Source: Bacteroidales bacterium (GTDB taxonomy: Bacteria > Bacteroidota > Bacteroidia > Bacteroidales > WCHB1-69). From it: a DNA stretch of 49,783 nucleotides. How positions within the stretch are numbered: position 1 is the first letter of the stretch; each line of letters begins with the position of its first letter. The translations under genes and the position numbers were made by a program. The stretch covers positions 1,642 through 51,424 of the forward strand of contig DAONEU010000002.1 of the NCBI GenBank assembly GCA_035403245.1, read 5' to 3'. The notes under the pieces were generated by a model. It had not been told where the DNA came from, searched no databases, and worked only from the letters and a program-made list of their open reading frames with translations. Positions 22,443-48,207 of this stretch are shown here, piece by piece.

Positions 22443-22444
22443 TA

Positions 22445-22490
22445 GGTTCAGGGTTCAGGGTTCAAGGTTCAAGGTTCAAGGTTCAGGTTA
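22445..22490. repeat. Tandem heptamer array (GGTTCAR) x 6.5
   Basis: Read directly: ggttcag ggttcag ggttcaa ggttcaa ggttcaa ggttcag gtta. It starts 3 nt after the peptidase stop codon. Confidence 0.95.
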
Positions 22491-22511
22491 TCAATAATTT
22501 GTGCTGTAACT

Positions 22512-22581
22512 CTTTTACTTTTTACTTTTTACTTTTTACTTTTTACTTTTTACTTTTTACTTGTTACCTCTTACTTGTTAC
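22512..22581. repeat. Tandem heptamer array (TTTTTAC-derived) x 10
   Basis: The AC dinucleotide recurs every 7 nt from 22517 to 22581. The last three units degenerate to ttgttac/ctcttac. Confidence 0.95.
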
Positions 22582-22590
22582 CTCAAATAT

Positions 22591-22636
22591 CTCTTATCTC
22601 TTCACTCTTCACTCTTCACTCTTCACTCTTCACTCC
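22591..22636. repeat. Tandem heptamer array (CTCTTCA) x 6.5
   Basis: ctcttat followed by 5 x ctcttca and then ctcc. It ends exactly at the stop codon (22637-22639) of the convergent gene. Confidence 0.95.
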
Positions 22637-40209: not shown

Positions 40210-40214
40210 GTTCG

Positions 40215-40246
40215 ATTGCTCGTGTGCTCATGTGCTCGTGTGCTCG
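40215..40246. repeat. Tandem octamer array (TGTGCTCR) x 4
   Basis: attgctcg tgtgctca tgtgctcg tgtgctcg, starting 6 nt after the protease stop codon. Confidence 0.9.
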
Positions 40247-40255
40247 ATTTTTTAA

Positions 40256-40309
40256 CTCTTCACTCTTCACTTTTCACTCTTCACTTTTCACTCTTCACTC
40301 TTCACTCTA
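40256..40309. repeat. Tandem heptamer array (CTCTTCA / CTTTTCA) x 7.7
   Basis: ctcttca ctcttca cttttca ctcttca cttttca ctcttca ctcttca ctcta. The last unit contains the stop codon (40307-40309) of the convergent gene. Confidence 0.95.
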
Positions 40310-43132: not shown

Positions 43133-45088
43133 ATGTCAGAAGAATTAATAAACAATCCGGAAATGGAAGTTAACAACGAAGAACAAGTTGTAGAAACTCC
43201 TGAAATTGAGAATGTTGAAGTTGAACAACCTGTTGCTGAAGTGGAAACAAAGGTAGTAAAAGAAGAATTACCAGAAGTTGAAGTAACTGCACCAAAGAAA
43301 ACCAAAGTTATTGAGAGTGCTTATCCATCTCTTGATGAATTCAATTGGGATTCTATTGAGAAAAAAGGGTCAAAATATTCTGCAACTGAACAAGATAGAT
43401 ATGAAGATCTTTACACTAAATCTTTCAAATCAATTGATGAAAATGAGGTGATTCTAGGTAGTATCGTTTCTATCAATAGTAGAGAAATTGTTGTTAATAT
43501 TGGGTTCAAATCAGATGGTGTTATTTCAGCTAATGAATTACGTTACAATTCTGATTTAAAAATTGGAGACACTATTGAAGTTTATGTTGAAAATCAAGAA
43601 GATGCAACAGGCCAATTACAATTGTCTCACAAAAAAGCTCGTTTATTACAATCTTGGAATCGTGTTAATTTAGCATACGATAATCAAGAAATCATAACCG
43701 GTTATGTAAAATGTAGAACTAAAGGTGGTTTAATCGTTGATGTATTTGGTATTGAAGCATTCTTACCAGGTTCTCAAATCGATGTTAAACCTATTCGTGA
43801 TTATGATATTTATGTTAACAAAACTATGGAATTCAAGGTGGTTAAAATTAACCATGAATACAAAAACGTAGTAGTTTCACATAAAGCATTAATTGAAGAT
43901 GAATTAGAAGCTCAAAAAGCTGAAATTATTGCACGTCTTGAAAAAGGACAAATTTTGGAAGGAACTGTTAAAAATATCACAAGCTACGGTGTATTTATCG
44001 ATTTAGGTGGTGTTGACGGTTTAATTCACATTACAGACCTTTCATGGGGAAGAATTATCCACCCAGAAGAGATTGTTCAATTAGATCAAAAAATCAATGT
44101 TGTTATCCTTGATTTCGACGAAAACAAGAAACGTATTGCATTAGGATTAAAACAATTAACTCCACATCCATGGGATGCATTAGATACAAATCTAGCCATT
44201 GGTGATAAAGTAAAAGGTAAAGTTGTCGTTATCGCTGATTACGGTGCATTTATTGAAGTACTTCCAGGAGTTGAAGGTCTTGTTCACGTATCTGAAATGT
44301 CTTGGTCACAACATTTACGTACTGCTCATGATTTCTTAAAAGTAGGTGATGAAATTGAAGCAGTTATTCTTACTTTAGATCGTGACGAAAGAAAAATGTC
44401 ATTGGGTATTAAACAATTAATTCCAGATCCATGGGAAAATATTGTTAGCAGATATCCAGTAAATTCTAAACATACAGCTACAGTTCGTAATTTCACTAAC
44501 TTTGGTATTTTTGTTGAATTAGAAGAGGGTGTAGATGGATTAATCCATATTTCAGATCTTTCCTGGTCTAAAAAAATCAAACATCCAGCTGAATTTACAA
44601 AAATTGGTGATTCTATAGAAGTTGTTGTTTTAGAAGTAGATGTTGATAATCGTCGTTTGAGCTTAGGTCACAAACAACTAGAAGAAAATCCATGGGATGT
44701 ATTTGAATCTATCTTTACAATTGGTTCTGATCATGAAGGTACTATCATCAGCCAAAATGATAAAGGGTATGTAATCGCTTTATCTTACGGAATTGAAGGA
44801 TTTGCATTCAACAGAGCAATGGCAAAAGAAGACAAATCAAATCCAAAGGTTGAAGAGATTTTAATGTTTAAAGTAATTGAATTCTCAAAAGAGGCAAAGA
44901 AAATTACATTATCTCACACCAAAACATGGCAAGAATCTAAAGAAGAAGAAGAAAAACGCAATGTTTCTGAAGATAAAAAGAAACAAAAAGAGATCACTAA
45001 GATCAATGATAATAATGAAAAATCAACCTTAGGAGATTTAAGTGTACTTCAAAACTTACAAGCTGACTTAAAGAGAAAAGAAAAATAG
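43133..45088 (+). CDS. rpsA: 30S ribosomal protein S1
   Basis: Six S1/OB repeats (for example GTVKNITSYGVFIDLGGVDGLIHITDLSW). Has an acidic N-terminal extension and a Lys/Glu-rich tail. Confidence 0.9.
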   Translation: MSEELINNPEMEVNNEEQVVETPEIENVEVEQPVAEVETKVVKEELPEVEVTAPKKTKVIESAYPSLDEFNWDSIEKKGSKYSATEQDRYEDLYTKSFKSIDENEVILGSIVSINSREIVVNIGFKSDGVISANELRYNSDLKIGDTIEVYVENQEDATGQLQLSHKKARLLQSWNRVNLAYDNQEIITGYVKCRTKGGLIVDVFGIEAFLPGSQIDVKPIRDYDIYVNKTMEFKVVKINHEYKNVVVSHKALIEDELEAQKAEIIARLEKGQILEGTVKNITSYGVFIDLGGVDGLIHITDLSWGRIIHPEEIVQLDQKINVVILDFDENKKRIALGLKQLTPHPWDALDTNLAIGDKVKGKVVVIADYGAFIEVLPGVEGLVHVSEMSWSQHLRTAHDFLKVGDEIEAVILTLDRDERKMSLGIKQLIPDPWENIVSRYPVNSKHTATVRNFTNFGIFVELEEGVDGLIHISDLSWSKKIKHPAEFTKIGDSIEVVVLEVDVDNRRLSLGHKQLEENPWDVFESIFTIGSDHEGTIISQNDKGYVIALSYGIEGFAFNRAMAKEDKSNPKVEEILMFKVIEFSKEAKKITLSHTKTWQESKEEEEKRNVSEDKKKQKEITKINDNNEKSTLGDLSVLQNLQADLKRKEK

Positions 45089-45109
45089 TCTAAAGTCTAT
45101 ATAATAATG

Positions 45110-45138
45110 AAAGGCCGCATTTGCGGCCTTTTTTTTTG
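45110..45138 (+). terminator. Intrinsic terminator of rpsA
   Basis: aaaggccgc attt gcggccttt hairpin followed by a T-run. Confidence 0.85.
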
Positions 45139-45317
45139 ATATTTTGACAACGGGAACCTTTACCGACGAAGCACTGCAATTATATTCTAATAAATAACGG
45201 ATGAAATGCATGCTAAATACTTCATTTAGAAGTGCTTTTGAAGTTATAATAATTTGCATCCAAACAGCACCCTACTTTTATAAGAATAACTTTTTCCCTG
45301 ATTACCATTCCCCAAAA

Positions 45318-45352
45318 CTCTTAACTCTTCACTCTTATCTCTTAACTCTTTT
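45318..45352. repeat. Degenerate heptamer array (CTCTTNN) x 5
   Basis: ctcttaa ctcttca ctcttat ctcttaa ctctttt, directly abutting the G+C-rich element. Confidence 0.8.
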
Positions 45353-45353
45353 A

Positions 45354-45598
45354 GGCATTCCCCTTTGGCGTTGCTCAACTCAATTCCCAACTCATCGAAT
45401 ATGAAAACCGTCGCTAGCCAAAGGGTCGGTCTCCGGCCTGTACTCCTCGTTTCGCTGCAAGGGTCTGAGCGGCCGGGCAGTAGCTCCCAGGGTCGCTCTG
45501 CCCGATCCGTCATCCCCTAAGCAGCTCAACTTGCGGGGTACTTGGCCTTCGCCCTAATGCGGGAGGGAAACCCCGCATTAGGGCGAAGCCGGAATGCC
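45354..45598. ncRNA. Candidate structured RNA or palindromic element of unassigned family (G+C-rich island)
   Basis: Closing helix ggcattcc (45354-45361) / ggaatgcc (45591-45598). Helix ccctttggc (45361-45369) / gccaaaggg (45417-45425). Hairpin cgggcag...ctgcccg (45474-45504). A 17-bp perfect helix 45547-45563 / 45572-45588 with loop agggaaac. Only Arg/Pro-rich shadow ORFs are present. Strand undetermined. Confidence 0.45.
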
Positions 45599-45610
45599 CA
45601 ATTAAAATGT

Positions 45611-45657
45611 AAAAAAAAAAATTTGTAGTCAACTGATCGCTGACTACAAACTTTTTT
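45611..45657. terminator. Bidirectional intrinsic terminator (pckA; possibly also a plus-strand transcript)
   Basis: A-run, 10-bp stem tttgtagtca/tgactacaaa with a 9-nt loop, then a T-run. It lies 25 nt downstream of the pckA stop codon. Confidence 0.8.
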
Positions 45658-45681
45658 GATGAGTTATACTGTTTAAAGGGA

Positions 45682-47307
45682 TTAAACCATAGGTCCGAAT
45701 TGAACCAAGGATTCACCGTCTTTAGTATCAGTGAAAGTTTTGAAGTTTTTAACAAATGAAGCTGCTAAATTATTTGCAGATTTTTGGAATGCTTCTTTAT
45801 CGTTCCAGCTGTTGGCAGGATTTAAAATGTGGTCAGCAATTCCTTCAATGTGTTTAGGTATTGTTAGATTAAAAGGATATACGATTTCAGTTTCACAATC
45901 GATCAATTCATCATTTAAAATGGCAGAAATGATACGTCTTGTGTCTTTGATTGAGATTCTTTTACCACCTGAGTTGAAACCACCGCCAATCCATCCAGTG
46001 TTCACTAAATAGGCAGTTGCATTGTGTTCTTCCATTTTTTTACCAAACACATCAGCATATTTTGTTGGATGCAACATTAAGAAAGCAGCTCCAAAGCAGG
46101 ATGAGAATGTTGGTGTTGGTTCAACGATTCCTCTTTCAGTTCCGGCTAATTTTGCAGTATATCCACTTAAGAAATAGTACATCATTTGTTCTTTAGACAA
46201 TAAAGAAACGGGAGGTAAAATGCCAAATGCATCAGCTGATAAGAAAATAACTTTTTTTGGATGTGTTCCTTTTGATTCCGGTTTAACAATATTTTCAATG
46301 TGGTGGATAGGGTAGGATACACGAGTGTTTTCTGTTTTATCTGCCGAAGAAAAATCAATGTTTCCTTCGTTATCAATAACTAGATTCTCTAGTAATGCAT
46401 CTCTTCTGATTGCATTATAGATTTCAGGTTCATTTTCTTTACTTAAATTGATACATTTTGCATAACATCCTCCTTCGAAATTGAAAACGCCTTCATTATC
46501 CCAACCATGTTCGTCGTCACCAATTAATGCTCTTTCAGGGTCTGTAGATAGAGTAGTCTTTCCGGTACCTGAAAGGCCAAAGAAAATTGCAGTTTCTCCG
46601 TTTTTCCCTTGATTAGCGGAACAGTGCATTGAAGCAATTCCATTAAGAGGCAAGAAATAGTTCATTACTGAAAAAATTCCTTTTTTCATTTCTCCACCGT
46701 ACCAAGATCCACCAATTAGTGCCATCTTTTCGGTTAAATTAAAGGCAATAAATACATCACTGTTCAAACCTTGCTCTTTCCAATTTGGATTAGATGCTTT
46801 ACAGCAATTCATAACTACAAAGTCTGGCTCAAAGTTTTCTAAAGCTTCTTGAGGAGGACGGATAAACATATTTTTTACAAAATGAGCTTGCCATGCCACC
46901 TCAGTGATAAAGCGAATTTTTAGTCTTGAATCCAAATTGGCACCTGCCCATAAATCCATTACATAAACATCTTTATTCTCTAATTGGTTTTGACAGATGT
47001 TTTTTAAATGGTTCCAAATTTCAGGAGTTATTGCTTTATTATCTGAGCTTTTTTTAGTAGGATCATGCCACCAAATGTTGTTTTCAGTGTTTTGATCTTT
47101 TACAACATATTTATCTTTTGGAGATCTTCCGGTAAATATGCCGGTGTCAACAGATAATGCTCCCGATTTAGTCATGTAAGCTTTTTCATAGCCTTCAAGA
47201 TTGGGTCGAGTTTCATGATTAAACAATTCATCATAACTTAGATTATGATAGATTTTTCCGGAATTTTGAATGCCTAAGGCGCGCAGTTGCTCTTTGATAT
47301 TGTTCAT
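45682..47307 (-). CDS. pckA: Phosphoenolpyruvate carboxykinase (ATP)
   Basis: [11 protein letters not shown] kinase-1a motif, DDEHGW, and about 540 aa, typical of ATP-dependent PEPCK. Confidence 0.9.
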
Positions 47308-47381
47308 ATATATTTTATTTGGTTATATTTCAGATATATAATTCAGCTACTATGTAATAATTTTGTAACATTATCATTTTG

Positions 47382-47389
47382 CAAACTTA
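47382..47389 (-). promoter_or_regulatory. -7 box TAAGTTTG (minus strand)
   Basis: The reverse complement of caaactta matches TAnnTTTG, 75 nt upstream of the pckA ATG. Confidence 0.4.
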
Positions 47390-47483
47390 AATAACATAAT
47401 TTGATTAAAATACTGATTTATATTTTTTTAAGAATTTTTAGGAATTTTTGGAGATAAATAAAATTTTGAACTTAATTATTATG

Positions 47484-47491
47484 TATTTTTG
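47484..47491 (+). promoter_or_regulatory. -7 box TATTTTTG
   Basis: Matches TAnnTTTG, 41 nt upstream of the ferritin ATG. Confidence 0.5.
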
Positions 47492-47531
47492 CTTAAAGAA
47501 ATTTAAAATTAACAATTAAATACCTAAAATT

Positions 47532-48119: not shown

Positions 48120-48207
<88 letters not shown>

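Follow-up and report, generated by a model that had tools for sequence, protein, structure and literature searches.

What is a strongly folded, G+C-rich block of DNA doing between two convergent protein-coding genes of a Bacteroidales genome that is otherwise rich in A+T? We examined this question in a 49.8-kb stretch of contig DAONEU010000002.1 (assembly GCA_035403245.1), called the window throughout; all coordinates are in window numbering unless a locus (L-number) is named. In the window, rpsA (43133-45088, plus strand) and pckA (45682-47307, minus strand) face each other across 593 nt, and within this gap the G+C content peaks at 66% (45341-45620, measured over 100 nt at a time) compared with 33% for the whole window. 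An initial annotation had read the block either as a free-standing non-coding RNA (ncRNA) gene of a new class or as a palindromic mobile element resembling repetitive extragenic palindromic (REP) sequences. Our analysis favours the second of these in a modified form. The block is probably a non-autonomous, rearranged copy, devoid of a transposase gene, of a modular mobile repeat family that is linked to IS1595-like genes and carries a cis-acting folded module, here named module A.

The block between rpsA and pckA

The stretch 45341-45620 is the sole long G+C-rich stretch of the window outside coding sequence and tRNA; the only others with at least 50% G+C are two short coding stretches and the tRNA. 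Four helices had been described in the block, and all of them exist: helix I9 pairs 45351-45361 with 45591-45601 (11 nt, 91% complementary), helix I15 pairs 45361-45369 with 45417-45425 (9/9 paired), a CGGGCAG / CTGCCCG hairpin is present at 45474-45504, and the arms of helix I1 (45536-45563 and 45572-45599) include a perfect 17-mer. The minimum-energy fold of the plus strand contains all four. Its energy is -122.9 kcal/mol (z -7.5), that of the minus-strand fold is -137.3 kcal/mol (z -8.7), and on neither strand was any of 200 dinucleotide shuffles as good. The annotated surroundings of the block were also recovered, with a terminator-like site on either side (45109-45132 and 45615-45657) and, directly beside it, a heptad array that Tandem Repeats Finder (TRF) places at 45316-45350 with period 7 and 5 copies. 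The block is not a 3' untranslated-region hairpin of either neighbouring gene, as had been argued.

The open reading frames (ORFs) in this DNA are short shadows only, in agreement with the annotation, and coding potential was ruled out, as copies of the block differ by 1-nt indels and compensatory changes. The Rfam search that had been recommended was performed on the whole window with Rfam 15; at the gathering score only the tRNA matched, and the block gave no match to a known RNA family. When 45050-45720 was searched at E<=10, the block was matched only by microRNA and small RNA (sRNA) models, in the region of the 17-bp hairpin and far below gathering scores. A fragment of tmRNA, RNase P RNA, SRP RNA or rRNA was ruled out, with no Rfam or ARAGORN match.

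A strong fold, the lack of a coding frame and the lack of an Rfam match all speak for a host ncRNA gene that is unique and free-standing. The orthologous site in relatives speaks against it. In the nearest complete genome, OW818690.1 (L093; PckA 84% identical), the convergent genes pckA and rpsA lie 49 nt apart, and in L094 (PckA 81% identical) they are separated by 63 nt. The sole hairpin in either gap is a bidirectional terminator homologous to window 45109-45137. Since the gap measures 593 nt in the window and 49-63 nt in these relatives, about 510 bp of DNA has been inserted in the window. The 95% relative (L083-L092) has this G+C-rich module between the same two genes as well, but inverted relative to pckA, 294 nt from the pckA stop and beside different modules and a fragment of an IS1595-like gene, and the hairpin that follows pckA in L083 differs from the one at 45615-45657. 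PckA-anchored synteny in 80 genomes of GTDB (closest 75% identical) revealed none with the element and no similarity downstream of pckA. The nearest genomes are metagenome-assembled genomes of uncultured Bacteroidales, not the Flavobacteriia that had been taken as relatives.

The inserted DNA is a mosaic of recognisable parts. Flanking the added sequence is a 9-bp direct repeat, TTTTTTGAT, which could be a target-site duplication of the insertion, and between its two copies lie the modules of a repeat family. The features, from rpsA to pckA, are:

45109-45137, no strand: ancestral terminator hairpin and T-run after rpsA (stem 45109-45132), which serves rpsA and pckA in relatives
45132-45140, no strand: left copy of TTTTTTGAT, in the T-tract; candidate target-site duplication
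45152-45288, plus strand: module B, A+T-rich (nhmmer B profile, positions 1-136; inverted repeat I8)
within module B, plus strand: the B "tail" GGGAACCTTTACCGACGAAGCAC and the imperfect inverted-repeat pair ATATTCTAATAAATAACGG (45182-45200) and CACCCTACTTTTATAAGAATAA (45268-45289)
45290-45317, plus strand: linker CTTTTTCCCTGATTACCATTCCCCAAAA, the same linker from B to the heptad array as in L107, L117 and L151
45316-45352, plus strand: heptamer array CTCTTAA / CTCTTCA / CTCTTAT (TRF), the last mosaic module before A in most copies
45353-45560, plus strand: module A, 208 bp, GGGCATTCCCCTTTGGC ... CGCCCTAATGC, full length and near consensus (model R1, 245.9 bits, E 2e-68, positions 1-208)
45561-45574, minus strand: 14-nt spacer GGGAGGGAAACCCC, which is the B tail's first 14 nt (GGGGTTTCCCTCCC) in reverse complement
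45575-45599, minus strand: inverted "mini-A", in which the 3' end of A (GGCTTCGCCCTAATGC) is joined to its 5' end (GGGCATTCC); the same 25-nt mini-A stands before B in L117
between the mini-A and the pckA hairpin: short remnant of an octamer array
45615-45657, no strand: bidirectional terminator-like hairpin, now that of pckA, within the inserted DNA and absent in L093 and L094
45652-45660, no strand: right copy of TTTTTTGAT, followed by the ancestral TTATAC at 45666-45671

This arrangement accounts for the closed, multi-branched fold that had been drawn for the block, and also limits it. The 9-bp helix and the apical hairpin are features of the whole family (the former corresponds to P2 of the consensus below). 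The 8-bp closing helix and the 17-bp helix are specific to the window copy and arise because the full module A pairs with the abutting inverted stub, composed of the mini-A and the piece of B tail. The loop region of the 17-bp helix is the 14-nt spacer itself, and the closing pairing joins the 5' end of A to the inverted mini-A over 11 nt; these are not the ends of the 510-bp insert. The window copy of A is the best-scoring match to covariance model R1.

About 510 bp (roughly 45141-45651) thus entered the T-tract of what had been a single bidirectional terminator shared by rpsA and pckA. The insert comprises, in order, module B, the linker, the heptamer array, a complete module A, the inverted stub (mini-A plus 14 nt of B tail) and the hairpin that now terminates pckA.

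Next to the insertion, the product of the window pckA is 541 aa long compared with 547 aa in relatives, and the ancestral stop region of pckA, TTATAC (45666-45671), is located just downstream of the present stop codon (45682-45684), adjoining the insertion. On the other side of pckA, the divergent spacer between pckA and the ferritin gene (47300-47530) is very A+T-rich, at about 17-21% G+C. The sole Rfam match of the window is a tRNA-Ser (anticodon UGA) at 48120-48207, downstream of the ferritin gene.

The repeat family and the fold of module A

Metagenome contigs were scanned with a 20-mer from the module core, GCCAAAGGGTCGGTCTCCGG (45417-45436). Of the 58 loci obtained, 56 are real and two are chance matches within coding sequence. 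With the exception of L111, in which the window's own locus was recovered (99.6% identity), the real loci are in unrelated contexts, and the similarity of the loci matching the window (L111 aside) is confined to 45163-45566. Several single contigs each carry 2-4 copies. Profiles built from the copies gave 81 matches for module A and 71 for module B, and 40 distinct complete copies of module A were obtained. The many copies bear out the alternative of a palindromic mobile or REP-like element, and, together with the empty orthologous sites, they refute a unique host ncRNA gene, to which we now attach next to no probability; the copy in the 95% relative is inverted, and dozens of copies exist elsewhere. 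The plasmid, phage and viral collections PLSDB, INPHARED and IMG/VR gave no BLAST match to the element. The module breaks assemblies in the way that repeats do: ten independent ones stop within it, and one (L090) changes there to a diverged variant. The family belongs to a lineage of uncultured Bacteroidales, from metagenomes of the wastewater and digester type. It has no Rfam entry, and no description of it was found in the literature searched.

Module A is 208 bp long and has sharp ends, 5' GGGCATTCCCCTTTGGC and 3' CGCCCTAATGC. Upstream of nearly every copy (upstream regions of more than 50 copies were compared) is a mosaic of short tandem arrays, mostly of heptamers. The types are CTCTTMA, TTTTTAC, TATCAGY, GGGTTTT, CATTATT, GTCYKYY, CGTAATT and TGCTCGW, in addition to the octamer ATTAGCAC, and the order of the arrays and their orientation relative to A recur among copies. 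Module B (about 138 bp) consists of the tail GGGGTTYCCCTCCCGACGGAGCAC followed by an A+T-rich stretch bounded by the imperfect inverted pair ATATTCTAATAAATGCAGGGT ... ACCCTGCTTTTATAAGAATAT. More than 20 copies share one and the same junction, from A position 208 to B position 1. A full-length unit consists of arrays, A, B, a gene for a protein of 341 aa, B', A' and arrays, with the right half inverted, and such units were found at L119 6065-8051, at L156 2065-4075 (in the complete genome OW818690.1) and at L104. B modules flank the IS1595-like gene on both sides in L119, L156, L117, L099 and L136, and some units have A on one side only.

Reduced and altered forms are also common in the family. 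A occurs without B, B without A, and heptamer mosaics without either. Deleted forms of A include the 25-nt mini-A, which retains both termini only, and another that starts at position 73. In hybrid variants (L101 12119-12361, L121 10342-10584, L135 43-284 and L144 12629-12879), the whole covarying hairpin (positions 95-183) has given way to about 125 nt of A+T-rich sequence with heptamer arrays. Two convergent spacers of the window (22444-22636 and 40210-40308) consist almost wholly of heptamer and octamer arrays, without a module A or an obvious terminator hairpin; their arrays, (AGGTTCA)n-(TTTTTAC)n-(CTCTTCA)n and (TGCTCGTG)n-(CTCTTCA)n, follow the same order as those upstream of A elsewhere. 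The TATCAGY / TCAGTTA arrays located upstream of A in L114, L119, L125, L112 and others are the reverse complement of TAACTGA.

Covariation within module A was assessed on an alignment of 38 distinct copies, with the structure predicted by RNAalifold and with 500 shuffles and slid-partner controls. In the consensus, P1 (GGGC / GCCC) joins both ends and P2 (CCCTTTG / CAAAGGG) surrounds a variable loop, some 50 nt in length; a 2-bp mini hairpin and a long irregular stem of 39 pairs (helix 4) complete the structure. Of the cells at the 52 predicted pairs, 97.9% pair. In helix 4, both sides have changed in 20 of the 39 pairs, and at least four versions of the long stem differ in sequence while the pairing is the same. 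None of the 500 shuffles reached any of the five observed measures, and slid partners paired in only 37-51%. The long central hairpin of A is thus maintained by compensatory changes. The covariation check that had been proposed is thus positive for this one helix; P1 and P2 never vary and so provide no covariation evidence either way. Unpaired motifs that are invariant across subtypes are AGCTCC and GTCGCTCT in the apical loop, GCTCAAC, which occurs twice, and CCTAATGC.

As to the strand, an invariant U.G pair at columns 95/191 and a subtype-wide G.U at 126/161 (7 G.U) hint at the plus strand, and sporadic G.U (14 cells) and A.C (12 cells) are balanced, so that these counts do not decide between the strands. 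On the plus strand, an AAAACC-NNNN-GGTTTT hairpin follows 7 of 47 A copies by script, and one more by eye. The Bacteroidetes-type promoter consensus, TAnnTTTG, was not found at a fixed distance from A; it occurs upstream of 5 of 55 copies and on the antisense side of 3 of 46, at scattered positions. The longest match of each variable loop to its own flanks within 700 nt on either side, by identity or complementarity, was 8.32 nt compared with 8.25 nt for loops swapped between copies, and hence showed no excess. The orientation of A relative to the upstream gene was the same in 24 cases and opposite in 15, without a clear bias. Together, the lack of a fixed promoter box, the lack of a loop-to-flank excess and the lack of a clear orientation bias make an independent sRNA gene less likely, and a guide-like role as well. 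A structural RNA that arises through read-through is compatible with these results.

The linked IS1595-like gene and the role of module A

The only protein that recurs beside A copies is encoded by an ORF of 341 aa, which is intact in full-length units (L119 6505-7530; L156 2501-3526). Other recurrent neighbours, namely OmpA-like proteins, lipoproteins and an ABC ATPase, were set aside as ordinary genes of homologous loci. The 341-aa protein is matched by the IS1/IS1595 zinc domain model NF050000 (E 7e-12; 45.7 bits against a cut-off of 28) and, below the cut-off of 75, by the IS1595 transposase model NF033547 (E 4e-11; 43 bits). It has no match to Pfam PF12762 (DDE_Tnp_IS1595); among its homologues, those with 30-35% identity have PF12762 and an annotation as IS1595 family. 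A tblastn search with the protein found nothing in the window.

We aligned 44 members of the clade (to which proteins P0121-P0168 belong; residues are numbered as in P0121) with 69 canonical IS1595 relatives. Five residues are invariant in the 69 canonical proteins, D150, D151, E158, D238 and N276, and in the clade these positions hold I/M, mixed residues, R, mixed residues and E/Q/R, respectively. The zinc ribbon (CxxC...CxxC) and a basic region are invariant in the clade. The genes look constrained, with amino acid identity equal to or above nucleotide identity at about 88-90%. By this comparison, the clade proteins may be catalytically inactive or domesticated derivatives of a transposase.

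A distant lineage (30% G+C) has homologues of the gene that are 46-48% identical. There, one outer end bears a G+C-rich block of about 200 bp, which lies past B-like repeats and was seen in two different genomic contexts (L157 4369-4560, with equivalents in L158 and L164). The block starts with GGGCGTGCC and has a AAAACCGC..GCGGTTTT hairpin, of the AAAACC...GGTTTT kind, on the inner side, where it separates the block from the B-like repeats. As a candidate homologue of module A it was rejected, since nhmmer found nothing and the covariance model with filters off gave 1.1 bits at best. The block is not more stable than its shuffles (z -0.1 and -0.3).

Several observations weigh against the reading of the window block as a mobile-repeat copy whose module A acts in cis. 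Overall, module A shows approximately 88-90% identity between elements in which the linked genes are 68% (nt) or 56% (aa) identical and the B modules 57-63%. The core of A reaches about 95-97%, and a manual count over the 122 nt of A downstream of the variable loop gave about 95%. Moreover, the two A copies around one gene can be of different subtypes, only 66-79% identical. A module that is more conserved than the gene and B, and of mixed subtypes, is odd for simple terminal repeats and suggests that A has its own function or dynamics. The canonical acidic residues are not kept, which leaves an active transposase of the family putative. No copy was caught in movement, and the TTTTTTGAT repeat lies within the T-tract of the terminator and may therefore be a chance match; at the ends of the L156 element no clean target duplication was seen. 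With regard to strand, the consensus energies are nearly equal (-60.7 for plus, -59.3 for minus), and in 37 of 38 copies folding of the single sequence gives the G-rich minus strand the advantage.

A first alternative is that A is a resident repeat of the type of REP sequences, bacterial interspersed mosaic elements (BIMEs) or BOX elements, domesticated or tolerated and acting at the level of DNA or of mRNA 3' ends, with an insertion sequence (IS) of the form B-gene-B that would preferentially enter the 3' end of A or the centres of A+/A- doublets; A would then be a target and no component of the transposon. Besides the high conservation of A relative to the gene or B that it flanks and the mixed subtypes around one gene, it has in its favour that about half of the A copies have no adjacent B and many B copies no A. 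It would also suit the intergenic position of the copies, often a few to approximately 350 nt from gene ends and beside terminators, and the 14-nt B-tail piece between A and mini-A in the window could be the remnant of a lost insertion. On both sides of full elements, however, the heptamer mosaics keep their order and orientation relative to A, which points to a larger composite unit. Further, the G+C-rich block that accompanies the distant gene homologues in two contexts fits better a block travelling with the element, and the orientation of A to neighbouring genes (24 same, 15 opposite) is not clearly biased. We regard a role of A as target as unlikely, but as the strongest of the alternatives.

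A second alternative is that A is a structured partner RNA of a catalytically degenerate, IS1595-derived zinc-ribbon protein. The covariation of the long helix, the invariant loop motifs (AGCTCC, GTCGCTCT and the two GCTCAAC) and the conservation of A above that of the protein gene are in line with such a partnership, as are the terminator-like hairpin after some copies and the apparent constraint on genes in which the canonical acidic residues are not conserved among the 44 clade members. Against it stand the missing TAnnTTTG box at a fixed distance on either strand and the variable loop that shows no excess match to its own flanks. Variants also exchange the covarying hairpin for A+T-rich heptamer sequence or shrink A to the 25-nt mini-A, the G+C-rich block of the distant lineage is neither detectably homologous (1.1 bits) nor structured, and many copies are far from any such gene. 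We consider a partner RNA improbable, and rank it below the target alternative. A bolder form of the idea, which we put forward as a speculation and rate lower still, is that A is the RNA or folded single-strand component of an undescribed mobile or domesticated system, in which an IS1595-derived zinc-ribbon/helix-turn-helix protein without the canonical catalytic residues depends on A at the outer ends of the element and the heptamer mosaics are part or by-product of the activity.

Returning to the non-autonomous mobile repeat, which we consider the likely identity of the block, copies such as that of the window would have spread or been rearranged in trans, or through recombination among copies. 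Module A would be a cis-acting part of the element that needs to fold in single-stranded form. The folded form would most likely be a plus-sense transcript, produced when transcription from outside runs into the element, and this structure may serve in insulation, processing or termination. At the rpsA-pckA locus, module A would have no dedicated host function beyond separating the terminators of the two genes.

Comparison with known elements and significance

The family shares several properties with transposable elements of the miniature inverted-repeat type (MITEs) and solo-end IS remnants. It is short, multi-copy and intergenic, carries no transposase and breaks assemblies; full-length relatives have inverted module pairs around a transposase-like gene; and mini forms keep both termini. 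Unlike in MITEs, the repeated end is very long and modular (heptamer mosaic, 208-bp A and 138-bp B), A is G+C-rich in a genome of 33% G+C and is more conserved than the gene, and paired A subtypes may differ. In addition, the linked protein is without the canonical acidic residues, and the target duplication is only a candidate.

BIMEs and REP sequences of enterobacteria and BOX elements of Streptococcus pneumoniae are made of separable intergenic modules in variable combinations and copy numbers, with strong predicted structure and often near the 3' ends of genes. The present family is likewise modular, intergenic, strongly folded and often near gene 3' ends, a likeness by description only. 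There is no sequence relationship to these elements, A is far longer than a REP unit, and an IS1595-like gene is physically linked. REP and REPIN elements have a palindromic unit of about 20-40 nt, doublets of which are mobilised by a gene for a REP-associated tyrosine transposase (RAYT). The unit here is 208 nt, and no RAYT-type gene was found among the recurrent neighbours, to which the search for RAYT was limited.

Omega RNA of IS200/605 elements, a transposon-encoded guide RNA, is a loosely comparable structured module. Similarly to the bridge RNA of IS110 (PMC11208160), module A is conserved, structured and non-coding and is located at the end of an element with a gene for a recombinase-like protein. 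In contrast to bridge and omega RNAs, no promoter and no complementarity of the loop to the flanks were found, and a search of Rfam at E<=0.1 with a full-length unit (L119 5800-8300) matched no family. Moreover, A lies outside the inner inverted repeats and on both sides of the element, and the protein belongs to a different family.

Two further systems invite comparison on account of their tandem repeats. BrickBuilt is a MITE of Porphyromonas gingivalis that contains a minisatellite with a 23-nt tandem unit (PMC4596501). Like the present family, it is an intergenic multi-copy element of Bacteroidales in which short tandem repeats are joined to leader and tail modules and to small inverted ends (PMC4596501). 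Unlike the present family, BrickBuilt has no G+C-rich covarying module; the tandem units here are mostly heptamers of many types, and we claim no sequence similarity. Arrays of the heptamer TAACTGA in Beggiatoaceae, cyanobacteria and a few Bacteroidetes are unexplained and mostly located just upstream of start codons (PMC4679880). The intergenic tandem heptamers of the present family resemble them, and the TATCAGY / TCAGTTA arrays beside A are the reverse complement of that unit. In contrast to the arrays of that study (PMC4679880), for which no linked structured module or transposase is described, those beside A or between convergent genes are of many types and in a fixed order.

For the annotation of this locus, the candidate novel ncRNA gene is replaced by the insertion of a mobile repeat, which divided a shared terminator and provided pckA with a new one. 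In practical terms, such repeats break metagenome assemblies of these Bacteroidales. Among bacterial interspersed repeats the family is unusual for its long G+C-rich module with a covarying hairpin, the core of which is approximately 95% identical while the linked proteins are 56% identical, for its ordered mosaics of heptamer arrays and for its tie to an IS1595-derived clade without canonical catalytic residues. If A is a functional RNA or a recognition structure, it would add to transposon biology a new example of a structured nucleic acid, and it would offer a possible lead on the unexplained heptamer arrays of a few bacterial phyla.

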